Source: Eledone cirrhosa
Taxonomy: Eukaryota
Assembly: GCA_964016885.1 (NCBI GenBank)
Contig: OZ024740.1
Span: 145,886,001-145,950,000, forward strand
DNA: 64,000 nucleotides
Reading direction: 5' to 3'
In this document: piece by piece, positions 4,012 through 60,576 of the stretch
How the letters are laid out: each line of letters starts with the position of its first letter
Numbering within the stretch: the stretch's first letter is position 1
Notes under the pieces: model-generated
The model's database searches: none
Told to the model about the DNA's origin: nothing
What the model saw: the letters and a program-made list of their open reading frames with translations, nothing else
Translations under genes and position numbers: made by a program

Positions 4012-5171
4012 TTAGAAACCCTTCCTATTTGCAGGAAATATTAGGCACACACATTATTATAATACATATGACTTAATATTTAGTTACCAAATTCGAGTTA
4101 GATACAGTAATGTTGTATTCGATTCTTTGAAGTCACCTATTATAATTTCATCCAACAACAACACCATCTCTCTCTCTCTCCCAAGTTCCTTATCTCCATC
4201 TCTCTCTCTATATATATATGTCTCTCTTTCAATCTACTCTCTCACAACCACTATCTCTTTCTCGCTATCTTTCTGTCTCTCGATTTATGAAGGTACCCGG
4301 GAAAACCCTGTGTCTCAGGAAATCCTGCTCTGATTTACGCGAAACTTGTTGTATTCCATTTGTATTCCCATTTCAGGGGCAACTTCCTTTCAAAGTATTT
4401 TCCCATTATGCGCTGTTTTGGCTGTATTAAATTACAGACAAGCACACAATCACATAATTTTAATAGTATATAGATAGTTAGACCCCGTAATCAAAATATT
4501 GATTTACAAGAACAATGGACAGTGATGAGTCTTTGGTCAGCATATCTAACGTTGAAGTCAATGGCTGATCATCAAATGATCTGATAAGATGCCAAATAGT
4601 GAACAAGGGTGCTCTGCCTAAACAGTACATGGAAATATAATATCATTGACAAACGATAATAATTATTTCTACAGTTCGAAATGTTTAAAATATATTGCTG
4701 AACTACTTGTCCAAGATTTGAATCTGGATCAACAAATGCATTTCTGTACGGGAGCAAATAAATTGTATGTTACGATGGACTGAACCAAAAATAAGTTCAT
4801 CGATCACTGTAAAAGGTTGTGTGACCCAGACAAAAGAAATTTGTTGACAATAATAAATTTCTCTTACAATAACTGACACCACAAAAGTAATAACATCTGA
4901 AGGAAATTGGCAACAGAGGCTATAATGAACTGGAAGAAGAATTACTGCCGTCATGATATATGCGCAGGCACTGATGTAGCGTGGGGTTTGGTCGCACATT
5001 CCTTAAACGTAATAAGCAGAGTCGTTAGAACGCCGTACGTATAGAATGCTTTGGAATATTCGTTCCGGCTCTGTGATCTAAATTCAAATCCCGCCGAGGT
5101 CAACTTTCATCATTTCGAGGTCGATAGAAAAGTACCAATCCAGTACTGGGATCGATTTTTCTCTATATCAC

Positions 5172-44776: not shown

Positions 44777-46668
44777 AATATACATATATTTTTATATTTT
44801 TTTATTTGTTTTTCTCATCTAGGTAACTTTTTTTTTATTAAATACATTGACTGCTTAAGAATTACATATTTTTTAGTAAAGAACATCTTAACAGTCAAGA
44901 ATAAATGGCAGCTTTGATAATTTCTGTAATAATATAAAGACTTAAATATCTTAGTTAACTAGATTATGTAGTGTTTTAAAAGCTTTCAGATTCGTATCAT
45001 ATCTTGAAAAAAATTGGTATTTCTCAGATGGACTTACCAAAATATTTTAAAAAGGTAATATGATACATTGTAGACTGTAAAAATTTGAATGTGTTTATAA
45101 AGAGAATCTACAAATATATCATGTATAAAGTTAGATGTAAACTTTACCTACATTTTTTTTATATTTGTCCTATAGACGTTTTTCCTCTTCATCTTAGCTA
45201 TGTTGTCTTCATTCTTATCATCACCATTATCATCAATATTTATATATTTATTTATTAACACTTATTTAATTTCCTTCAGATATTTCATTTTTCTGTGTGA
45301 AATGCTTTATAAATATCAACTTCAGAAGAAATTGTCTTTATAGAATGAATATTGAGTGAATGTATGCCTCCTTGCCTTCTATCAAGAAAATTTTAAATTA
45401 AATAGAGAAATGCGACCTTTGTTTCTTTTCTTCCCATTTAATCTCTTAGAGTTTTATAGTAAGTTTGTAAAGATGATAAAGCTTCTTATTTTCAGTCTAA
45501 AGAAACTATAATTTGAGAAATCTTGCAATCTCAGTTTTATATCTATATCTTCATATGCTTATATGTCTATATAGCTATATATTTTGCTTTCCATGTCAAT
45601 AGAAGGTTTTTTCCTTACTACCTAATGTTTCATGGAAGAAAAATATTTATAGTATTGCCATTTAAAAGAATACATGGAATATTCCAGCAAATTAGTTATC
45701 TGGAACAAAAAGAGCTACTTTGAACCTACGGAAATAATATTAAATTGGTTTCCATAAGCGCCTTTTCATTTGAACTACACACATAATTTCTTCACACCTT
45801 TATATTTGTTTATATGTAAAATTATGTAATTTATATTTAATCATACTGTATTTGTGCTGTATTACATATTTCACAATTTATGTCATTATATATCTTCTAA
45901 GATGTTCTCTCTTTGAAATTATTTGATAAGGAAAAAATTATTAAACAAAAGAAATTTCTTTTGCACAGTATTTATTTATCATTTTCATCTTCATGACATA
46001 ATATTCCTTTTCATTTTGACACCAAAATTAAAATCAGTGTAATTAAATCACCACAGAAAAAGAAATAAATAAATAACAGACATTATTTATTTTTCTGTTA
46101 ACTTTATTTTACTGCTAATATTTTTTATCTGTTTTTATATCTTCAAATAAAAAAAAATGATACTAGATCATAGTCTTTTATAAAATGTCTTTTTTGTTAT
46201 TTCATTCTTACTCTTAACCCTTTAACTATATTTCTAATGAAATATACTGCAAATATGTTTCAATTAGTTTTTAAAAGAATTGTAAAAAAATTTTTTTAAC
46301 GAGCAAGACACTGTCACCTGATCTGACTTATCTCAAAACGGACAACTCGTCTAACCCATGCTAATGTGGGAAAATAGATGTTAAATGGCGATGATGATGA
46401 AGCTGACGTTTTGAAGTAATTGTAATAGAAAAAACAGCCAAACCTCAAAATTAGTCTTAGGACATTGAATAAAGGGTAGATGGTTATGATTAGAATGCCT
46501 TCTGACCAACATCTTCCATACTGTTATAATTTCCGAAGACCATTGCAGCAGCTGTGTAAGTTGTTAATGCTCAGTCTTTTTCTGTTATTTTAAATATGTT
46601 GTATGAAGAAGTCTACCTAGTAGACATACTAAAACCCAAATCCTGATGAAATCTGTTCAGAATTTAGT

Positions 46669-46835
46669 TTAACCTTTTAGCATTCACATTACTCTATATT
46701 TACTATTGTAAAAGCTTTACCTTACTTACCTCTCATAATATTGAATCTCAGTACCTTACCTTATCAGTATAAGCAGCCAGGTACAGAAAGAGGTGAGAGA
46801 ATTCTAGCCAGATATGGCCAGTTTAAATGCTAAAT
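46669..46835. mobile_element. TTAA-type (piggyBac-like) MITE; relatives sit in each tandem unit at 54844-57628
   Basis: TTAA-CCTTTTAGCATTCA...AATGCTAAA termini, shared with 51572-52939. Confidence 0.65.
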
Positions 46836-46905: not shown

Positions 46906-47034
46906 TCATGGAACAAGGAGACAAGCTCCACCAGCAGCCTTGATTTTTTGTTCAGCGAGTTTACTGAAGAACTTTGCTTTCACAATAACTGGGGCTTTAG
47001 GAATCTCTCCTTTTCCAAGAACTTTAAAATAACC
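46906..47034 (-). CDS. RPL27A: 60S ribosomal protein L27a (uL15) exon 5
   Basis: [42 protein letters not shown] then stop; TTGTAG acceptor. Confidence 0.97.
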
Positions 47035-47725
47035 CTACAAAGAAAACAAATTAAAAAAATCAAACTAAATATAAAACCAAACCAAAATATCAGGATACAT
47101 ACGGATAATGTATTAATGATAAGATTTACAGAGAGCACTAAGTATGCTGAACTAGCAAACTACTGTATGCAGTTTCAGTTGTTTTGGGTACTTTGGGAGC
47201 CAAAGGATGCACAAACAATATCTCTGGAGGTAATGCAAATGAGGTTAATTTAATAGAAAAAATATGAAATTGAGGTTCAAAACATTTAATCAGCTTTCAA
47301 TATCAATCTGTCAGAAACTGTCTACGGTTGTGATGAAAAGCTATTTTCAAGTATTCATATTCGAATTATAACTTAAAAGCTAAAATATTATTTCAATTAG
47401 ATTCTAAAATTTATATTGGGTTCATAAAGCTTTGGCTTAGTAGTATATTAAAATGAAGCTTAAAAATATGTATTTAAATCTATAAAAAAAATTTAAGGCA
47501 AAATTTGATATACAAAGAAAGCTATTTAAATTGCTTGAAATGTTCCTAACATTGTTTCAAGGTATTGTCTTCGATCTTGCTCATTAGTGAACACACAAGT
47601 AGAAATATATTACAAAAACGTAATGGGTCCTGTAGAAACAAAAAAAAACAGCTATATCGCATTAATTAATTTGTTTATACTAATATTGTAGATTAAATAA
47701 AAAATGTTCGCTCTACATGACTGAA

Positions 47726-47935
47726 TACAATAAATGTAATCTGCATTTTTCGAATATTAATAACATTCGATTCGTTTGCAATTATGCAAACAAGCCACAT
47801 TTTTACATGCCAACACAAGAGCAAGAATGAAGGGTTCATTCTACTGACATGGTTTTAAAAATGAGGCTTGTTTGCATAATTGCAAACGAATCAAATGTTA
47901 TTAATATTCGCAAAACTCAGATTACAAATATTGTA
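47726..47935. repeat. Inverted repeat (~80-bp arms) in RPL27A intron 4, MITE-like
   Basis: TACAATAAATGTAATCTG...CAAGCCACATTTTTA pairs with TAAAAATGAGGCTTG...CAGATTACAAATATTGTA. Confidence 0.9.
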
Positions 47936-48159
47936 GATTGGTTGACAACAAAAGGGTCACCATCACATGATCTTTAAAAGTAGGATACATTTGTACGAGG
48001 TTGAAATAGCAACTATAAATTTAACTTAAAGTTACTTTGGATATCCCCGACATTATTGTTGCATTACATGATATACAAGTTAAAAAGTAACTTGCATTAG
48101 TTAAAAAGTAATGCATGTAGAGCATATTTTGATTTTTTTAACATTAAGCCAGAACTTAC

Positions 48160-48337
48160 ATGTTTGACACAATCAATAACTGCTGCTCTTCTATCTGGTC
48201 GACGTTGCATATAGTTAGCTCTTATATTCTCTGGTACCAAATCCCACAGTGAATCTATGTTGATGATAGGGCAATAATAATGATGTTTTAATAAATGGTA
48301 ATGCCTCATTCCAACTTTACCAAAATATCCAGGATGG
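48160..48337 (-). CDS. RPL27A: RPL27A exon 4
   Basis: [14 protein letters not shown]...IDCVKH; TTTAG| acceptor and |GTAAGT donor; 178 nt. Confidence 0.97.
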
Positions 48338-48560
48338 CTAAAAAGAAAAAAGAAAAAAAAAAATCGAAAAAGTTTAAAGAAACTCACTCAACCTGAAGCA
48401 TCAAACTTTATGAAGCACATATAAATTGATAGAAATCAGAGTACTAGAAGAATCAGGCGTGTAAGAAAGAAGACTGCATAAGATAAACCCTCTTAATACA
48501 TAATACCACATGATAAATGGTAGTCTCTTGGTAGATTTGAATCAATTTAATTATCAGTTT

Positions 48561-48675
48561 TTATGTTGTGAACATAACAAAAGACCAATTTTGTAACTGA
48601 AGACGGATCACATTTTATATAGTCCAAGTTTGTACGATAAACATTATTTAATGTTTATCACATGGAACTGGACAG
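48561..48675 (-). ncRNA. H/ACA snoRNA-like copy 8 (deletion in the 3' hairpin; likely defective)
   Basis: Homologous to the other copies; H box ATATAA and ACA kept; lacks about 12 nt (GGACCGTTACAA on +). Confidence 0.6.
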
Positions 48676-49211
48676 AAGCAATCTACAAAATTATCAACAT
48701 AATTATTTGATAATGATAAAACTAATACAAATAGTATATTTTTTACTATTAACTCACATTCCTGCTTTTATAAATTATGCCCATCTAATCTATGCCAGCA
48801 TGAAAAGTGGGCATAAAAGGTCACAAAATAATTAAATGGTGTACATAGAAAAAACAATATTTTAAAAGATGCAGGCCGTTTTTTAAGAACAATTCAGCAA
48901 AGATATTTTAAACTTGAAGTCTATCAAAAATTATACTATTGGCACATAATGTTAAACATCATTCATGCTGAAAGGGCACCATTGATAGAACTGCCTCAAA
49001 TCTTGATAAAAAGAAAAGAAATCCTATCACAAACAAAATTATAAACAGCTAAATTACCCTAAGCCAATAAAGAATCCCTAACCGGCACTCTACCCATTAC
49101 AAATACCAGTCTCAATGTCCCACTATACCTATGCTATGTTCAATATAAATTAACAGTTCTTTAAATGTAAGATACAACATTGATTTGAATTAAAAATTTA
49201 ATTAATAGTTT

Positions 49212-49344
49212 TTATGTTGTGAACATAAGGACCGTTACAAGCCAAAAAACCAATCTTGAAACTGAAGACGGATCACCTTTTATATAGTCCAAGTTTGTAT
49301 GATAAACACAATAATATTTAATGGTATCACATGGATCTGGACAG
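49212..49344 (-). ncRNA. H/ACA snoRNA-like copy 7
   Basis: Hairpin, ATATAA, hairpin, ACA+3 nt. Confidence 0.78.
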
Positions 49345-50200
49345 AAAAATGCAAAACTCAATTTGGCAGTTAATTCTCAAAACACACATCTATGAAGTTT
49401 GTCACCATTGAAAAAAGGGTGCAGCAAAAACTATTTTGACTACTAAAAACGCAAAATTAAAGACAACCGAGATAAATGAACTATCTTTAGGTTATAAACC
49501 AATGTTCTAAATATTTAATACCATCACTGTAATTTAATAAAGGCATAAGAGCAAACCATTTTTTACGCACCAAACTAAAATTTCAACACTGAAGAAAAAG
49601 CCATTTTTACATGAAACATACCAGGCCAACTTGATTAACTCAACATCCAATAAAGAGTAATCTGGCTCAAATGTTCCATGAATGACAGCAGAAAGCAATA
49701 CATTGCTATAGAGTTGTTTTAATGTTTACTGTATTCCCATTTTACATGATGTAGAAGAAAAAGGTCCTATTTTAATCAGAAGCAAAAGACTAAAGTCTCA
49801 ATCAACCAAGTCTTTCTCAACAATCAATAACAAATTACATTATCAGCCATAAATCTTTTAACAGTCTAATGTAGAAAATGATATGCCAAGATGTGAGACA
49901 ATAGTGGTTAACAACACCAACAATATCAAAAATCATGGCCTCAGCAATAAAGTCAGTTATGAACAGCAGTTAAATATTTCTTAAATAAACACTACAATCT
50001 TGTTGAATATGCAAGGTATATAATATATTTCGTGAAAAGAACAAAAAAAAAAACTTCAATTTACATCATGTAGATGCATTATCAACCACATTGATTTGAA
50101 TTATTTAATTATTCATGTAACATTACTCCAAAGACTCTTCAGAGGAATCATATTTAGCCAGCATTGTCAGCTCTCACAGCAATAAGTGTGCAAAGAATTT

Positions 50201-50331
50201 AATTGTTGTGAACATTAGGACCGTTACAATATAAGACAAAATGTTGTAACTGAAGACAGATCACATTTTATGTAGTCCAAGTTAGTATGATAAACATTCT
50301 AATATTTAATGTCATCACATGGATTGGACAG
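50201..50331 (-). ncRNA. H/ACA snoRNA-like copy 6
   Basis: GTCCAA/TTGGAC stem, ACATAA H box, TGTGA/TCACA stem, ACA box. Confidence 0.8.
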
Positions 50332-50559
50332 AAACATGAACAATATTCTGTGAGAAGATGCAATTATTTCTAATTTGATAATTATGACTATGAAATAAAA
50401 CATGTGGTGATATGGAAACAAATAGATTACGCTAAACGTAAATAAACATAAATAAGTTGTAAATACGTGTATTATCCCAAAGTGAAAAACCAAGTTTTGC
50501 ATCAACATGGTGATTTCAAAGTTTATTTATTTACACATGGTGGTGGTGATACGGAAATA

Positions 50560-53330
50560 AACGAAGGTTGACGAATGACGTCACATTCTTCTACTTTCAC
50601 TTCTGACAGTCAATTCCGTTTTATCTTACAAAGCTAGTAATATTAAGACTGAACAAGTTTGAGTAACAAATACACTGAAACAAAAGGCCCTGATCAGAAA
50701 TAGCAAAACAATTGGGAATTATTTCTGTTTTTTTAAAAGATAATTTATTCCACTCGGAAGCAACCAGAAAATTGATTACAAGGGACAGAGGACAAACTGA
50801 ACCAATATCACGTTTCAGATGTCATTCAGAATCCAGCAAGTGGCCACCGTGACTGCAACAAACTAGTCTATGTTTGGCCATTTATCAAATCAGTGATTGA
50901 TGAAGGCATGCTGCTTTCATTGGGTGACTGTTACAAACAATATATTCCACGAAAGTCCACAAAGCATGGGATAAAAGTGTGAATGCAGGCTGATCGACAC
51001 AGCTATGTAAATGACTTCCAAGTCAAGGAAAGTCCCAAATCAAACAGAACAAGGTGTTGGAGAAAGTTGTAAAGAACCTCATGAGGGACATATGGGGAAA
51101 AATTACATGTATTGTGATAATTTGTTGTCAAATTCCTTTTAATGAACTTAGACAGATCCACGTTTGTCGCACAAAAAGAAAAAAATTTTGAAGAAACATT
51201 TTATTTTACGTCCGCTTTTCCCTGCTTGCAAGGGTGGGACAGGAACTGATTCTGGCTTGATTTCTACAGCTGGATGCCCTTCCTAATACCAACCTCATTT
51301 ACAGTGAGTGCTGGGTGCTTTTTTGCCGTGGAATGATAGGCACCTCTCATTTCTACAGCTGAGTGAACTGGAGCAATGTGAAATAAAGTGTCTTGCTCAA
51401 GGAAACAACACATCACCCGGTCTGAGAATTGAACTCACAAAGTAACACAATACAGAGGCAAAAAGAGGACCTGATGACAAAAGCCTGACCACAAACTCCA
51501 GTCCCAATGATCAGGGAACACATGAATGGAGTAGACCATGCACCCCAGTTGAGAGCCAGATAGTGCATTAACCCTTTAGCATTCACATTGAATTGTCAAA
51601 TGTCATGTTCATGTATTCGCATTATTTTCACTTAATTATACTCAAAAGGGTTATCAATTTTATTTGTTTGTAATTACTTTAATTTTCTATGTGCAGACTT
51701 GCAATTTTGTCAGTAGATGTTTAAACAACTATAATTTACAATTATATATTTTTACCTGATTTTTTTTGTTAAATTTGACTTTTATGGGCAGGTGAAATTA
51801 ATTAACAGGTGTAAAAGTAATAACTTTATGGATAAACACAAAAATTTAAACTTTATCTGCCTTATCTGTTAGATGTGTTGCAAAAAAATCCAATAATGAT
51901 CTAGATGCTGATTTCCATCAATTCTAGCAGTTTCCGAACAGGTGGATTAGTACAAGGTTTTAGTCTTTCTCTACATTCCAGGCAAATATTTTCATTGAAA
52001 AAAATGTATAAAACCTTTTCACCAGTCAAAATAATATTGGCAATGCACTCTGTAAATGTATGGTGTAAAATTACGTAACAGAAAGTTCCCAATATATAAG
52101 TCCATACACACTTTTAAATTTTTCTGACATTTCAATTAATGGTCGTGTACAGTGGGTCGTAATTTGATTCATTTCTACCAGCGGCATTTGAAGTATCAAC
52201 CAGGTGCAAATACTGGTTTAATTTGATGAATCTCGTTTTTGCCATAATACTAGATATATAAGGGTCACCAAACCTTATATCAGTACTCCAATAATTCCAG
52301 TCGTGGAAATTGTTTAATACCAAACATAATATTTATGGTAAAAAACGCTTTCATTTCGGCAGAATCTGTCGGACGCCTAACAGATCGGGTTTTCCGATTA
52401 GAAATTTGTCGTTGTGCATTGCGATTTGCCAAATTCAAAGAAAGTTTGTGGTAAAAAAAAATAATAATAATCCAGTGCTTTAGCATCAGGTGGTAATGTG
52501 CCAGTAAAATCCGAAACATGTATCGATGTTTCTTTCAACCACGTTGGTGTTTTTTCAATGGTGCCAGTCAAATCTCTTTCACTTTCAAAGTGACTATCAG
52601 ATATATCAGAAATAAATATATCTGATTCGTTTGAAGATAAATCACTGATATTATCTTGTTTCTTTTTGATCTCGAATGTCGTCGGACGTAAAACCTTCAA
52701 ATTCGTTGTCGCTACTTTCGGAAGCAATGTTACACTTTCAACATTAAAAACGCGTGTTTTCGCAAGTTCTTTAACTATACTAAGAGGTAATTTTCGTGCG
52801 TAAGGGCTTTATCTCGCATCTCGAATTGACGAGATTTCGATGATGTCAATGTTTTTATTTTTAGGAGATCTCTGTTATTAAATGTCGGTTTGAATAAATG
52901 AAAGGGGACATAATCTTGTCGGTTTGAATGCTAAAAGGGTTAAAAGGAAGTCAAACAAATGGTGGGAGTATTTCCTTTTTGTTGTTGATGTAGCTATGTG
53001 TTGTCATTTATGTTAATGAAAGAATCCCAAACCAAAACTCCTGTTAAAACAAGGAAAAAATGTAGTCGGTTGGGTTTCTGGCCCACCAACCTTTTGGAAC
53101 TATTCCTATAAAAGAAGTTACTCAGGTTCAATGTGTCACACACTGGTCTGTAAACTTTGGGGAAAAGAGAATTTGCAAAACAAAATATTAAGAGAACCAA
53201 AAACAGGCGGTGAGAACAATGCAAACTAAATCTCTGTATTAACTGTTTCAAGCCCCATCATCTGGAACATTTTCATTAAAATTATGTACTTGAAGCTTTA
53301 TGAAATGTTTGGCAATACCCTTTAAAAAAT
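50560..53330 (+). mobile_element. Old piggyBac transposase relic, split by a SINE-like repeat and a nested piggyBac; boundaries approximate
   Basis: VIDEGM, KQYIPRKSTKHGIKV and HMNGVD; QLRAR*CIKRKSNKWW is rejoined across the 51572-52939 insertion. Confidence 0.75.
51572..52939 (-). mobile_element. Internally deleted piggyBac element with TTAA TSD
   Basis: TTAA-CCCTTTAGCATTCA ... TGAATGCTAAAAGGG-TTAA; remnants YWSTDIRFG..IMAKTRFIKLNQYLHL..YDPLY. Confidence 0.9.
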
Positions 53331-53563
53331 TCCGTTTGGTATGGTCTTTGGCTTAGAGAGATAATGTCAAATACTAAGAGAAGTAATCATATACGACCAC
53401 AAAGGAAATTTTTTATATCAACATTAAATATATTCACATGGAATAAATAAAGTCATTTAGGGAATCCAGCCAAATTAATTAGGTTGCACATAAAGGCATG
53501 TTTGAAGGCTCTGCCCCAACATCTCAACCAGCAGTAAGTGTGCAAAGAATTTAATTACCTTTT

Positions 53564-53690
53564 TAATGTTGTGAACATTAGGACCGTTACAATACAAGAC
53601 AAAATCGTGTAACTGAAGACAGATCACATTTTATGTAGTCCAAGTTGGTATGATAAACATTCTATTTAATGTCATCACATGGATTGGACA
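53564..53690 (-). ncRNA. H/ACA snoRNA-like copy 5
   Basis: Same architecture; closest to copy 6. Confidence 0.8.
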
Positions 53691-53699
53691 TCAATTGCT

Positions 53700-54600
53700 A
53701 GAAATGTTCAAGATGATACGGTTTGAAACAGCTGATGCAGAGGTTCACTTTGCACTGTACACATCCTGTCTTTTGGTTCCCTTCTAATGTTCTGTCACCC
53801 ACCCAGCCTACAGGCCAGTGCATGGCGCCCTGCACTATGGGAACCTTTTTGTTTTATAGGAATAGTCAGATTAGTTGATGGGCCATTCTTACGTAAGCCA
53901 ATGAAATATATCATCTTTGGTTTTTTTTGACAGGAGCTTGTGATTTGGTAACTCATCAGTACAAACGATGAACATATAGCTACATCAACAATAAAATGAA
54001 ATAGCTATTTCCACCATTTGTTGGACTTCCTTCCAATGCAATAAATGGCCCTAAGTTGGTCTACCAGTCCATACCATTTATGTATTCAGTATCATTTTTT
54101 TTATTGATCTCAAACATGGCACATTGAGATATTCGCCAGACACTTGTTAAGTTATTCAGTTGCCACTAGGTTCCCCTTTTGTTTTTAAATCAAGTCACCT
54201 AGTTTTTTGTTTTCAATTTAGTCAAGTTGATAGCTTTTGGCATGCCTCTTCTATCCACTTATGTTCATTTGCATGCAAACGAAAATAACAAACCATCTGT
54301 AAACTTCCATTACAATAGATTTATGGGTATAGATCAGATGAATTACATGATTGGTAGACCAGGTGCTGATAAATAGTTTGGTATATAGTAACATTTGGTC
54401 AGTCTCAATTCGGAGTCATTAAATAATTGGATCATTGGGAAAGAAAACCGCAGCATGTGGCTCAATACTTTAAAAGTAAATAAGTACTGAGAGTGACACT
54501 TTCCTAGATACCAAACCATGAACAGGTTCAAAAGCAATGTACCAATCTGTAATGCTGAGTAATTGTTGCAACATGAAAAAAGGAAAAAGCTTGAGATCTT
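53700..54600 (-). mobile_element. Second old piggyBac relic in inverted orientation; boundaries approximate
   Basis: Minus strand DQLRAIYCIGRKSNKWW near 54010-54065, homologous to the plus-strand relic. Confidence 0.6.
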
Positions 54601-54996
54601 GGGATAAAGGCAAAAGATAGTGAGATTCTTCTCAATTCAGCCAATCTCCATAACACAGGAGAATCAATTGTTAAAGGAGACTAGACCAAGAATGCCAACA
54701 CCAGAAAATAAAAGCTCAGAGTGGACAATCTGTCAGCTTCTTTGCATCATGCAAGATCTCAATATATAGAGTTGGGATGATTTACAACTTTCCACAAAAG
54801 AAATATTGAATTAATGTATATATAATTTTATCTGGCTTAGAATATTCCTGATGTCATAAGAAGTTTCTCAAAAGTCCCATGTAACCCATTCCAGCATGGA
54901 AACGATTAGTTTATATATTTTTTTATTTTGTGACCCTAAGACGTTATTAACTCTCTTAACCAGTATATATATGAATTATTTATATATTACGCTTTT

Positions 54997-55124
54997 TCAT
55001 GTTGTGAGCATAAGGACCGTTACAAAACAAAAGACCAATCTTGTAACTGAAGACGGATCACATTTTATGTAGTCCAAGTTTGTATGATAAACAATATTTA
55101 ATGTTATCACATGGATCTGGACAG
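54997..55124 (-). ncRNA. H/ACA snoRNA-like copy 4 (tandem unit A)
   Basis: GTCCAG..TTGGAC, ACATAA, TGTGA..TCACA, ACA-TGA; internal pockets in both hairpins. Confidence 0.82.
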
Positions 55125-55687
55125 AAACAATGAAACTGTTTGGTAGTTCTAAAAATTCAGCACATATCAATGATTATAAATGATACTGCAATGTATTTTT
55201 CGAATGGGCCCTCTATCTGAGACCTAAACGCAAAGGAGGGTTTGTTATGATTGTTTTTATTCAATCTGACCATACTTCAGTTGTTGATAGCCTTATTTGC
55301 ATCTCTCCCCGAATTGGTCATTCTCTCAGGCCCACAAAGACTAGACTTTATTAACCCTTTAGTATTTACATTACTCTATATTTACTGTTGTATTTTTGTG
55401 GTAAAGGCTTTATCTTACATAGTAGTGAATGAACGAAATTTTAATATTTATTTTGAAGAACAATGCCTTAACATCAGTATGAGCAGCCGGTTATGACCTG
55501 TTTGAACAGAAAGAGGTGAGAGATTCCTGATGTCATAAGAAGTTTCTCAAAAGTCCCATTGTAACCCATTCCAGCATGGAAACGATCTTTTCAAATTTAC
55601 TTAGTTTATATATTTTTTTATTTTGTGACCCTAAGACGTTTCTCTCTTAACCAGTATATATATTAATTATTTATATATTACGCTTTT

Positions 55688-55815
55688 TCATGTTGTGAAC
55701 ATAAGGACCGTTACAAAACAAAAGACCAATCTTGTAACTGAAGACGGATCACATTTTATGTAGTCCAAGTTTGTATGATAAACAATATTTAATGTTATCA
55801 CATGGATCTGGACAG
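55688..55815 (-). ncRNA. H/ACA snoRNA-like copy 3 (tandem unit B)
   Basis: Same architecture as copy 4. Confidence 0.82.
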
Positions 55816-56394
55816 AAACAATGAAACTGGTAGTTCTAAAAATTCAGCACATATCAATGATTATACATGATACTGCAATGTATTTTTCGAATGGGCCCTC
55901 TATCTGAGACCTAAACGCAAAGGAGGGTTTGTTATGATTGTTTTTATTCAATCTGACCATACTTCAGTTGTTGATAGCCTTATTTGCATCTCTCCCCGAA
56001 TTGGTCATTCTCTCAGGCCCGCAAAGACTAGACTTTATTAACCCTTTAGTATTTACATTACTCTATATTTACTGTTGTATTTTTGTGGTAAAGGCTTTAT
56101 CTTACATAATTATCTGACATAGTAGTGAATGAACGAAATTTTAATGTTATTTATTTTGAGGAACAATGCCTTAACATCAGTATGAGCAGCCGGTTATGAC
56201 CTGTTTGAACAGAAAGAGGTGAGAGATTCCTGATGTCATAAGAAGTTTCTCAAAAATCCCATTGTAACCCATTCCAGCATGGAAACGATCTTTTCAAATT
56301 TACTTAGTTTATATATTTTTTTATTTTGTGACCCTAAGACGTTATTAACTCTCTTAACCAGTATATATATGAATTATTTATATATTACGCTTTT

Positions 56395-56522
56395 TCATGT
56401 TGTGAGCATAAGGACCGTTACAAAACAAAAGACCAATCTTGTAACTGAAGACAGATCACATTTTATGTAGTCCAAGTTTGTATGATAAACAATATTTAAT
56501 GTTATCACATGGATCTGGACAG
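56395..56522 (-). ncRNA. H/ACA snoRNA-like copy 2 (tandem unit A')
   Basis: Same architecture as copy 4. Confidence 0.82.
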
Positions 56523-57085
56523 AAACAATGAAACTGTTTGGTAGTTCTAAAAATTCAGCACATATCAATGATTATAAATGATACTGCAATGTATTTTTCG
56601 AATGGGCCCTCTATCTGAGACCTAAACGCAAAGGAGGGTTTGTTATGATTGTTTTTATTCAATCTGACCATACTTCAGTTGTTGATAGCCTTATTTGCAT
56701 CTCTCCCCGAATTGGTCATTCTCTCAGGCCCACAAAGACTAGACTTTATTAACCCTTTAGTATTTACATTACTCTATATTTACTGTTGTATTTTTGTGGT
56801 AAAGGCTTTATCTTACATAGTAGTGAATGAACGAAATTTTAATATTTATTTTGAAGAACAATGCCTTAACATCAGTATGAGCAGCCGGTTATGACCTGTT
56901 TGAACAGAAAGAGGTGAGAGATTCCTGATGTCATAAGAAGTTTCTCAAAAGTCCCATTGTAACCCATTCCAGCATGGAAACGATCTTTTCAAATTTACTT
57001 AGTTTATATATTTTTTTATTTTGTGACCCTAAGACGTTTCTCTCTTAACCAGTATATATATTAATTATTTATATATTACGCTTTT

Positions 57086-57213
57086 TCATGTTGTGAACAT
57101 AAGGACCGTTACAAAACAAAAGACCAATCTTGTAACTGAAGACGGATCACATTTTATGTAGTCCAAGTTTGTATGATAAACAATATTTAATGTTATCACA
57201 TGGATCTGGACAG
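57086..57213 (-). ncRNA. H/ACA snoRNA-like copy 1 (tandem unit B')
   Basis: Same architecture as copy 4. Confidence 0.82.
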
Positions 57214-57969
57214 AAACAATGAAACTGTTTGGTAGTTCTAAAAATTCAGCACATATCAATGATTATAAATGATACTGCAATGTATTTTTCGAATGGGCCC
57301 TCTATCTGAGACCTAAACGCAAAGGAGGGTTTGGTATGATTGTTTTTATTCAATCTGACCATACTTCAGTTGTTGATAGCCTTATTTGCATCTCTCCCCG
57401 AATTGGTCATTCTCTCAGGCCCGCAAAGACTAGACTTTATTAACCCTTTAGTATTTACATTACTCTATATTTACTGTTGTATTTTTGTGGTAAAGGCTTT
57501 ATCTTACATAATTATCTGACATAGTAGTGAATGAACGAAATTTTAATGTTATTTATTTTGAGGAACAATGCCTTAACATCAGTATGAGCAGCCGGTTATG
57601 GCCCGTTTGAACAGAAAGAGGTGAGAGAATTCTGGCCAGATAAAATGTTAATGGGAGCCTTTCCTGAGAACCAACAGTAGCATATCACTATTTGGTTCAG
57701 AGTTGCTTATCTACGTGGCAAGAAACTATATATCTGGTGGCCATATCTATTAGCTACCACTTACAACCCATTCTCTGGCAAAACAGCCACATTTTTTTTA
57801 CCCAGTTAACTAGCTAATGTAAGAATGTTTGAGCCTCCATGACCTTGTGCTTGATTATACAGGCCCGTTTTCTAAATCAACATGGTATGGCTGCCTTCCC
57901 TCTGGCAGAGAAACTCACCACTTCAAACCATGCTTCTATTAGCAATAATTGAATGAGTTAAATACTTAC

Positions 57970-58070
<101 letters not shown>

Positions 58071-58666
58071 TTAAAATGCACAAAACTTTAACGCTTTAAC
58101 CCATTCATTACCGTATTTCTACTTTTTAAAAAACCCTAAATTTTGAAAATAACCAATAATTTGGAAGTATTTAGCAAAGCAACTCTCTCGTTATGAAGAT
58201 GGTGTTTGAAATGTAACAAAAGTTACTTAAGTAAAATTCAATGGAAGGTTTTTAGATAAATATATAGTTTTACATCATAAAACAGTTGGGTATTGAAAAG
58301 TATTAAAATGTATATCACATATAACCTTCCAGTCTCGACTTCCTGAATCCTTTGTTCATTATTTCTTAATTTAATATTCTGGTCATTGGCCATTAATATA
58401 GCCTCTTATTAATTATGTACTATTCCAACAGAATCAAAATGTGAAGAAACTTGACAAAGTTGAACTTCTGATATTGCAGTTGTTAAATCTTTGTTCCCCT
58501 TCTAGAAATAAACTACAACTCAAAGCTATAAATATGGGTTACTCTTGGGTCTCGAATAATCTGTAATATAAACAGTGGGCTAAATTGCAATTTAACCGGT
58601 AATCTTTTTCAAAATTGAATGCAGAACGAATATGAAAAAAATTCAGACAATACAGGAACGACTTAC

Positions 58667-58730
58667 CAACTCGACCATGACCGTGGCTCACGTGTCCTCT
58701 TAATTTTCTAGTCTTCTTCTTTTTTGTGGC
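58667..58730 (-). CDS. RPL27A: RPL27A exon 2
   Basis: ATKKKKTRKLRGHVSHGHGRV; CTTAG| acceptor and |GTAAGT donor. Confidence 0.97.
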
Positions 58731-58969
58731 CTAAGAAAGAAAATATGGAATGTTAAAAATTTTCTGATTCCAGTGACTACCATATTAAACTAAAGTACAG
58801 CCAGCAATTTATATGGGATAAGTTGATTACGTTGACACCAGAAGGATGAAAGACAAGTCCGACCCAGATAGTCTTTGAACTCAGAACCTAGAGCTAGAAC
58901 AAATACCATGTGGCACTTTATCCAATTATGAACTGTACATTTAATTTTTTCAACGAAAAAAATGTAAAT

Positions 58970-59150
58970 AATTGTTTCTACTTTAGACACAAGACCAGCA
59001 ATTAAACAGTACATTACTGGTACTTTATTTTATCGACCCCGTAAAGATGAAAGGCAAAGTTAACCTCGGCGGGATTTGAACTCAGACTGTAAAGGGACGT
59101 AACTATGCTAGAGAGCATGGCGTCCAACCCTCTACCGATACTGCCAATTC
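58970..59150 (-). mobile_element. tRNA-derived SINE in RPL27A intron 1
   Basis: Reverse complement of the same family core with B-box. Confidence 0.9.
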
Positions 59151-60573
59151 AACAACCAGATTTTTTAAGTCATACGTCCTTCCACAACATACAGACCATA
59201 AATCTGAATGCAAAACTATGGTAAAAAAACGGAAAATTCCTTAATTAACTCCATCTAGGCTTGCTGGATATCCAACAAACTATACAAAATGGAAACGGAA
59301 AATTAAGACAACTAGCATTGCAGTAAATATTTACTTTGTACTGGTATTCTTCAAATGTCTGTACAAAATAATGAAAGTAATAGTCGAGTACCCATTCACG
59401 TTCTCAATACACGCACAAAATATTTACAATTCTAACAGTTGTCTTCCCTTACTATTACATCCATCTTGGAAATTTAAATACGAGCAACTGCAGATAGTCA
59501 CAATTACTGAATACAGTTACACTCAATAAAACTAATTGGTTTAACTTTTCATACAATTTATCTTGGTCTGTTGTTTTAAAGTGAATACTAGTCCGATTAC
59601 ACAAGTCTATAAATAAACACCGATCCTCCTATGCATAGCACGGACAAAATGCAAGTTCGCCTGCAGAGGATCATCGCAAAAATATATTCACGTGTATTGA
59701 ATGATTAATGGTGTGAAAATGTCAAAATCAAATCTTAAATTCTGTTATTAAAAAAATTAGTTGACACGCGACGTTATTTTTAAGGTACTGATATCTAAAA
59801 AGTTAGAATACAAAATTATTCTACAGCCATTTTTTATGGTTAATTGACTCAATATTAAAACAATACTTTATTTCGTACAAATATGTATAACAAGTATAAA
59901 ATTAAAGAAAAGCTATGTAATAAAATGGGACTAACAATAATGGGAAATTTGTCTTCTTAGGATTACTGAAACGAAGTAGAAGTGTTCATGAAGATGAGTT
60001 AAAAGGAATGTTAGACTAAGCAGTGGCTAATCGAATTGAAAGCCGCGAGACGGCGATCTGAGAAAATTGTGACTAAGTCGACATATGTGTATGTTTAAAA
60101 GGACATATAGCATAAGTAAATACAGCTAAGGACTGAACGAGAATGAATGTGCGTTAATTTAACATATGCATGCGGACTTAAATATATATCGAGAAAAATA
60201 CTTCAGACATTTTGTATTGTAATTAAACATGAAATGTTTCATAAGCCAGCGAAATTTGTAATTAGAATTAAATGGGATTGACGATAATTTAATTAAATTG
60301 TTATGTTATGTTATACTTTCATATCAAAAACCTTGCAAAACAAATTAAATTATGAACAGTCGTCAAGTTAACGTCGATATAGGGCTACATGTGTGTAAAA
60401 TGTAATAATAACTTATAAAATGAAAATCTGGGTTTAACTAAAATAAATAATTAATTTTTTAAATATAATATAACAAGATGAGTTAAAATGTAGTATATAT
60501 GGCAAAATTAATATTTCAAATCAATACGATTAAAACGGATTTCTTGTCAGATAAAATAAGACAGCGTACTCAC

Positions 60574-60576
60574 CAT
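60574..60576 (-). CDS. RPL27A: RPL27A exon 1 (ATG only)
   Basis: ATG|GTGAGT preceded by a pyrimidine-rich leader; completes a 450-nt CDS. Confidence 0.8.

Follow-up and report, generated by a model that had tools for sequence, protein, structure and literature searches.

In this study, we examined a 64,000-nucleotide (nt) stretch of the Eledone cirrhosa genome (contig OZ024740.1, positions 145,886,001 to 145,950,000 of the forward strand; the window), in which a group of H/ACA-like small nucleolar RNA (snoRNA) sequences lies packed inside one intron of the gene for ribosomal protein RPL27A. A continuous reading frame together with a Pfam match defines RPL27A as a five-exon gene on the minus strand (46906-60576), which is a single locus in the genome. 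Its introns 2 and 4 are spliced out in read run X4, the kind of which is not on record, at a depth of ~3000. As for intron 3, which hosts the snoRNA-like sequences, the X4 messenger RNA (mRNA) contig carries 78 letters upstream of position 48336; exon 3 measures 76 nt, and these letters would fit a direct join of exon 3 to exon 4, a joint absent from those listed (15 of 2318).

Intron 3 contains eight copies of one unit, here named c1 to c8, all of them on the minus strand and hence in the RPL27A sense orientation (see the table). The copies span 127 to 132 nt, except for c1 which, at 114 nt, is short by 14 nt. An earlier interpretation made from the letters alone (the sequence-only reading) had described eight such copies on this strand and within this intron, and all eight 3′ ends, the strand and the intron boundaries are confirmed here.

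Features of the RPL27A locus; for each copy, on the minus strand, the first coordinate is the 3′ end
Feature	Position	Strand	Evidence or remark
RPL27A start codon, end of exon 1	60574..60576	-	pyrimidine-rich leader before, GTGAGT after; sequence
RPL27A exon 2	58667..58730	-	translation; spliced joint 58044-58666 in run X4
RPL27A exon 3	57970..58045	-	translation
RPL27A intron 3, cluster host	48338..57969	-	9632 nt, GT..AG; frame continuous across
Copy c8, type B, in array	57086..57212	-	sequence, covariance model
Copy c7, type B, C-to-T change in 3′ pocket, in array	56395..56521	-	sequence, covariance model
Copy c6, in array, identical to c8	55688..55814	-	sequence
Copy c5, type B, in array	54997..55123	-	sequence, covariance model
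Copy c4, type A	53564..53690	-	sequence
Copy c3, type A; best predicted 18S match in both pockets	50201..50330	-	target scan
Copy c2, type B, stem mismatches	49212..49343	-	sequence, consensus fold
Copy c1, type B, likely degenerate	48561..48674	-	14-nt deletion takes much of 3′ pocket
Recent tandem array, four ~700-bp units, order A-B-A′-B′	54844..57642	.	periods 691/707/691
Transposon-like relic between c3 and c4	51568..52945	.	TTAA-flanked inverted ends; high depth
RPL27A exon 4	48160..48337	-	joined to exon 5 in run X4
Separate single H/ACA RNA, SNORA14-like, intron 4	47989..48116	-	Rfam E 8.9e-4, 31.7 bits, cut-off 36; outside cluster
RPL27A exon 5, coding part	46906..47034	-	Pfam PF00828, E 7.8e-13

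A covariance model built from the eight copies recovered exactly these eight (119 to 169 bits; next match, 23.9 bits) in 73.9 kb comprising the window and 9.9 kb of neighboring DNA. Across the 3.0-Gb genome, BLAST searches with c8 and c3, which differ most among the intact types, gave eight out of eight candidates in intron 3 each time; these copy counts are lower bounds, and distant homologues elsewhere are excluded at the sensitivity of BLAST only. In read run X1, depth over the bins of c1, c2, and c4 was 19 to 76, as compared to 10^3 to 10^6 over neighboring transposon pieces. With its copies confined to one intron and a low read depth at the old ones, the unit is neither a dispersed repeat nor a snoRNA retroposon. 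The sequence-only reading had named a repeat scattered genome-wide in both orientations as the observation that would speak against it; what we found were eight matches in one intron and on one strand. In the one ribosomal protein gene compared, RPS5 of the same genome, the introns contain no repeated unit, and RPS7, sought for the same comparison, was not found in the genome.

Each unit follows the order of hairpin, hinge with an H box, hairpin, and ACA. The H box (ANANNA) is present in all eight copies and varies only as ACATAA (six copies) or ATATAA (two copies), the second hairpin is followed by ACA throughout, and neither basal stem (GTCCA/TGGAC, GTGA/TCAC) shows any change. Seven copies have the complete H/ACA anatomy, the second hairpin of c1 being shortened; both this deletion and the stem mismatches of c2 had been described in the sequence-only reading. 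The consensus fold contains 28 pairs, with 97.9% of cells paired. Since c5 to c8 derive from one array, the copies represent five independent lineages rather than eight. Counted over these lineages, the apical loops vary in 15 of 28 columns and the stem, pocket, and box columns in 12 of 99 (Fisher p 1.3e-5; c1 deletion left out). Likewise, the copy bodies are 77 to 93% identical, whereas flanks 61 to 160 nt away have fallen to 43 to 58%, against a baseline of 50 ± 5. Of all the results, the loop bias of this variation speaks most strongly for selection acting on an H/ACA structure. The motif UGAG, which we take to be the CAB box found in an apical loop of small Cajal body-specific RNAs, occurs in none of the eight copies, and this class was rejected. 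We consider the eight copies to be paralogues of a single RNA, likely an H/ACA guide snoRNA, that has no Rfam family.

Local duplication within intron 3 of RPL27A probably gave rise to the copies. Four of them are old and dispersed (c1 to c4) and four come from one recent tandem duplication of ~700 bp, in which each unit holds one RNA copy plus one TTAACCCTTTAG transposon-like end. Two alternate pairs of array units show 1 and 3 mismatches and the other pairs 6 to 8, neighboring units being 6 to 8 substitutions plus indels apart. Because alternate units are closest to each other and the array junctions share a short GAAT microhomology, the pattern suggests growth by 1-2-4 doubling via microhomology. 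The array contig of run X1 has a depth of 39.6 as opposed to 11 to 15 for unique contigs, which is multi-copy, albeit ~3-fold rather than 4-fold, and at both sites diagnostic of c7 it carries nothing but the majority letters. In run X5, from a relative, depth at two array positions is 18 to 23 versus 15 to 19, about single-copy, which hints weakly at a recent origin of the array. Of the nine read runs, four were compared with this region; the fourth, X6, yielded one near-identical piece of low depth (2.4), probably admixed DNA, and was left out of account. A tree of the copies contains one firm split, separating type A (c3 and c4) from type B (c1, c2, and c5 to c8) with support of 100/99. The locus also displays snoRNA birth and decay at several ages within one intron.

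The TTAA-flanked relic between c3 and c4, which we take to be piggyBac-like by its motif, has no Pfam match. Short elements at 57440-57642 and 46659-46814 are related to it, and one such element end lies in each array unit.

We think it likely that the eight paralogues, as a locally duplicated H/ACA guide, are made from the RPL27A pre-mRNA as an intronic cluster of the Drosophila type; with all copies placed in intron 3 by BLAST, the amplified single-locus intronic cluster put forward in the sequence-only reading is supported. For such a cluster to be processed, the host pre-mRNA would be spliced and intron 3 excised, H/ACA core proteins would load on and protect each intact copy, an endonuclease would cut the excised intron in its unprotected spacers, and exonucleases would trim the products to monomers of ~128 nt. 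In yeast, release of polycistronic or intronic snoRNAs by the endonuclease Rnt1 is described in PMC10557570. Not all copies need be active here: c3 gives the best fit, and c1 is probably in decay. The spacers between copies measure ~540 to 3200 nt and hold transposon pieces. In a scan of their folding (15 shuffles each), two of ~77 windows had z < -2.5, one of which is c8 itself. The spacer between c5 and c4 contains a stable hairpin on the minus strand (53961-54080; z ~-4.6, 15 shuffles) that overlaps a decayed repeat.

For a glimpse at possible functions, the pockets were compared with all 2189 uridines of 18S, 5.8S, and 28S ribosomal RNA (rRNA) and U2 from the same genome. As a positive control, the SNORA14-like RNA of intron 4 gave as its top site 18S GGTGAAAT[TC]TTGG, presumably the target of SNORA14. 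Summed over lineages, the top site of the 5′ pocket was 18S 2038 and that of the 3′ pocket 18S 1979, 59 nt apart, a proximity reached in 3 of 200 shuffles. By way of the anchors Um1269, Gm1271, and ac4C1280, position 2038 maps to yeast U1290. This yeast pseudouridine is listed as guided by snR83 (PMC5699541), and its human equivalent, 1347, is given as the ACA4 site (PMC3542256). The 5′ pocket of c3 forms 5+5 pairs at this known pseudouridine site, with a distance of 13. We predict that the 5′ pocket directs pseudouridylation at the 18S uridine corresponding to yeast 1290 and human 1347, and the 3′ pocket of type A at the uridine 59 nt upstream; both predictions are suggestive only.

The two types differ at two positions of the 3′ pocket, and these match the differences between two 18S motifs: UAGGA-UU-GACAGA at 1979, and its look-alike AAGGAA-UU-GACGGA at 1892, 87 nt upstream. 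In a strict Watson-Crick test, which was designed post hoc after the lenient results, the 3′ pocket of type A forms 5+7 pairs at 1979 with a distance of 14 (6 of 300 shuffles), and that of type B forms 5+6 pairs at 1892, one additional base being left unpaired (36 of 300); 3 of 300 shuffles reached the two matches together. Site 1979 is identical in the three 18S loci read (four stretches). By their distance from 2038, sites 1979 and 1892 correspond approximately to yeast 1231 and 1144, for which no modification is entered in the yeast table (PMC5699541). It is possible, though doubtful, that duplication in this cluster let a guide RNA change its target, two changes in the 3′ pocket having moved a perfect match from the 1979 motif to the 1892 motif; the paralogues would then direct pseudouridines to two sites that carry no modification in yeast, and their release would be from a transposon-laden intron of 9.6 kb without a visible cleavage signal. 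Such a target switch between paralogues, if true, is the one feature that could lift this locus beyond a known arrangement. The separating C/T change may be a simple mutation, because it lies at a CpG and recurs in c7.

Several results weigh against a functional guide cluster. First, Rfam at its gathering threshold gave no match in the whole window, and when the intron, c8, and c3 were scanned by E value, the matches were weak only, none at a family cut-off. Covariation among the copies was likewise absent, with two-sided, compensatory change in 0 of 28 pairs; both checks had been proposed in the sequence-only reading and came out negative. On stability alone the fold is weak, with z from -0.15 to -1.96 in the seven copies tested. 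Second, the target evidence is thin. Only c3 pairs with the 5′ site 2038 without interruption, and under lenient scoring the shuffles reached the score of its 3′ pocket in 18 of 200 cases, that of its 5′ pocket in 166 of 200, and that of the c8 3′ pocket in 121 of 200, the last of these for a type B site in 28S (own position 5045/5046) scored at 12.5. The joint scores were reached in 82 and 166 of 200 shuffles, and none of the eight pocket tests was significant under this scoring. Strict scoring gave no site for the 5′ pocket of either c3 or c8, and the scan covered 18S, 5.8S, 28S, and the small nuclear RNA (snRNA) U2. Third, neither a conserved nor a recurring cleavage hairpin was found in the intron-3 spacers, which are far longer than the 26 to 111 nt of the fly 1377 cluster discussed below.

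Under the alternative that survives best, one or two copies (c3, perhaps c4) work and the others are passengers or pseudogenes; neutral tandem slippage would have produced the array, with little polycistronic output. This would agree with c3 alone matching both predicted sites unbroken, with the partly lost 3′ pocket of c1 and the stem mismatches of c2, and with ~570 nt of unrelated flanking sequence and one transposon end having been duplicated along with each array copy. Nevertheless, boxes and basal stems persist in the type-B copies c1, c2, and c8, whose distal flanks stand at background identity, and we regard the alternative as unlikely. Moreover, core proteins would likely be bound by passive copies as well if their boxes are intact, and trimming would be blocked there, such that the processing problem stays.

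A second alternative concerns the product rather than the copies: trimming from the intron ends only would leave a stable RNA of ~8.7 kb with c8 and c1 as its caps, or shorter RNAs with snoRNA termini, resembling the long noncoding RNAs whose ends are snoRNAs (sno-lncRNAs). That no cleavage signal is seen in the spacers would suit this outcome, and such RNAs, the H/ACA-ended SLERT among them, can derive from two snoRNAs within one human intron, as described in PMC11028025. By contrast, closely packed fly copies are reported to accumulate as monomers with mapped ends (PMC13228274), and X4 contig depth in repeat-poor bins of intron 3 is 1.5 to 10.6 versus ~3000 for the mRNA; contig depth is a poor measure, and the run has no library type on record. 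Overall, stable long products appear quite improbable.

The sequence-only reading had also suggested that hidden noncoding exons or recursive splice sites might split intron 3 so as to leave one copy per intron. Each array unit does contain two YAG-GT sites preceded by a pyrimidine-rich stretch (seven of the 12 YAG-GT sites in the intron), and the joints listed are only 15 of 2318; yet no donor consensus follows any of the 12 sites, the recursive motif YAG-GTRAG does not occur in intron 3, and the sole strong pyrimidine tract of the intron is its true 3′ splice site. The letters upstream of exon 4 in the X4 contig would fit exon 3 joined directly. The suggestion hence finds no support in the sequence, and we deem it very unlikely. 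Finally, a chance H/ACA-like local repeat or an assembly artefact, to which the missing Rfam match and covariation, the weak fold z, and an X1 array contig at ~3-fold depth without the c7 diagnostic letters might point, is barely credible in light of conservation that follows H/ACA structure, substitutions and indels between neighboring units unlike those of a duplicated read, and a multi-copy depth that was likely lowered because contigs drop rare variants.

Apart from the cluster, intron 4 holds the single SNORA14-like RNA used as a control above, which is absent from the sequence-only reading; it has a fold z of -5.55 and 7+6 pairing to its own 18S. The same intron contains a long near-perfect inverted repeat of very high read depth (47735-47926), which is probably a miniature inverted-repeat element and scores far below the cut-off of the plant microRNA model that it matches. 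Exon 4 by itself has no Pfam match, and its second half looks divergent against what we take to be the animal RPL27A consensus; no second RPL27A locus was found in the genome. A low-depth X4 contig (58017-58695) spans intron 2 unspliced, reflecting a retained intron, pre-mRNA, or DNA. Elsewhere in the genome, the rRNA genes are very long (18S ~2.9 kb and 28S ~6.3 kb by Rfam bounds; L013 575-3450, and L013/L014 from 4795), with 18S matches on at least four contigs, and U2 snRNA genes form tandem arrays at C3:307349256-307453739 (period ~2.2 kb) and C13:36171017-36183088, 48 matches being scored.

Among Rfam families, snopsi18S-1854 (RF00540) is the best weak match of c3 (19.3 bits, cut-off 40, E 0.38), with which it has the basal stem GUCCAA/UUGGAC as well as the first part of the hinge in common; alignment is confined to the 5′ half, and the pockets are not alike. 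Human RPL27A guests had been invoked as a precedent in the sequence-only reading, and host gene and H/ACA class are indeed shared with SNORA3/ACA3. However, no match to the SNORA3 family was obtained at E up to 10, and the best joint targets here lie in 18S, while chicken ACA3, encoded one per intron in RPL27A introns 2 and 3, is described as having 28S targets (PMC2653536); the identity with SNORA3 was rejected. With regard to the predicted 5′-pocket target, the guides for 18S 1347/1290 are SNORA4/ACA4 in vertebrates and snR83 in yeast. Chicken ACA4 is given as a single copy in EIF4A2 that uses its 3′ pocket (PMC2653536), and snR83 as having a second site at 1415 (PMC5699541). The SNORA4 family (RF00394) had no match in the genome, where the control also gave nothing, and none on c8 or c3. 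Like the sno-lncRNA loci, this intron carries more than one snoRNA; in SLERT two snoRNAs cap a long RNA, as opposed to eight paralogues here, with no evidence for a long product.

The better parallel is provided by flies, whose H/ACA clusters were reportedly described by Huang et al. in 2004. Intronic snoRNA clusters are by now a named category (PMC11028025; PMC12205218), and the arrangement seen here is not new, being known from flies. The sequence-only reading was right that the layout is unusual for vertebrates, but the surprise it drew from this was overstated because it rests on a vertebrate rule of one snoRNA per intron: Drosophila H/ACA loci are described as generally clustered in introns, unlike those of silkworm and vertebrates (PMC3089462). 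In S2 cells, Psi18S-1377a-e lie 26 to 111 nt apart, a spacing that would place them in one intron, and all five are reported as detected, at 36 to 114 transcripts per million and with mapped ends, while Psi18S-525/640 occupies at least 13 rows within 3.7 kb, most but not all of them expressed (PMC13228274). The fly mfl cluster, on the other hand, is given as one gene per intron (PMC1821038). By an offset of 87 (fly U1356/G1358 versus yeast 1269/1271), fly 1377 would correspond to yeast 1290, the 5′ target predicted here; the fly guide of that target would therefore itself be a cluster. The corresponding family, RF00543 (snopsi18S-1377), had no match in the genome, with an uninformative control, and none on c8 or c3. 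Among the titles and abstracts searched, with subscription papers outside the search, no report of such snoRNA clusters in cephalopods was found. If expressed, the RPL27A copies would give an invertebrate lineage other than flies a single-intron H/ACA cluster and add a guide RNA without an Rfam counterpart; long spacers and copy-specific variants would make release from one animal intron traceable copy by copy. Like the Drosophila clusters, the E. cirrhosa locus combines several isoforms of one probable H/ACA guide on one strand of one intron in a housekeeping host; unlike the fly cluster, it has transposon pieces in its spacers and owes half of its copies to a recent ~700-bp tandem array.

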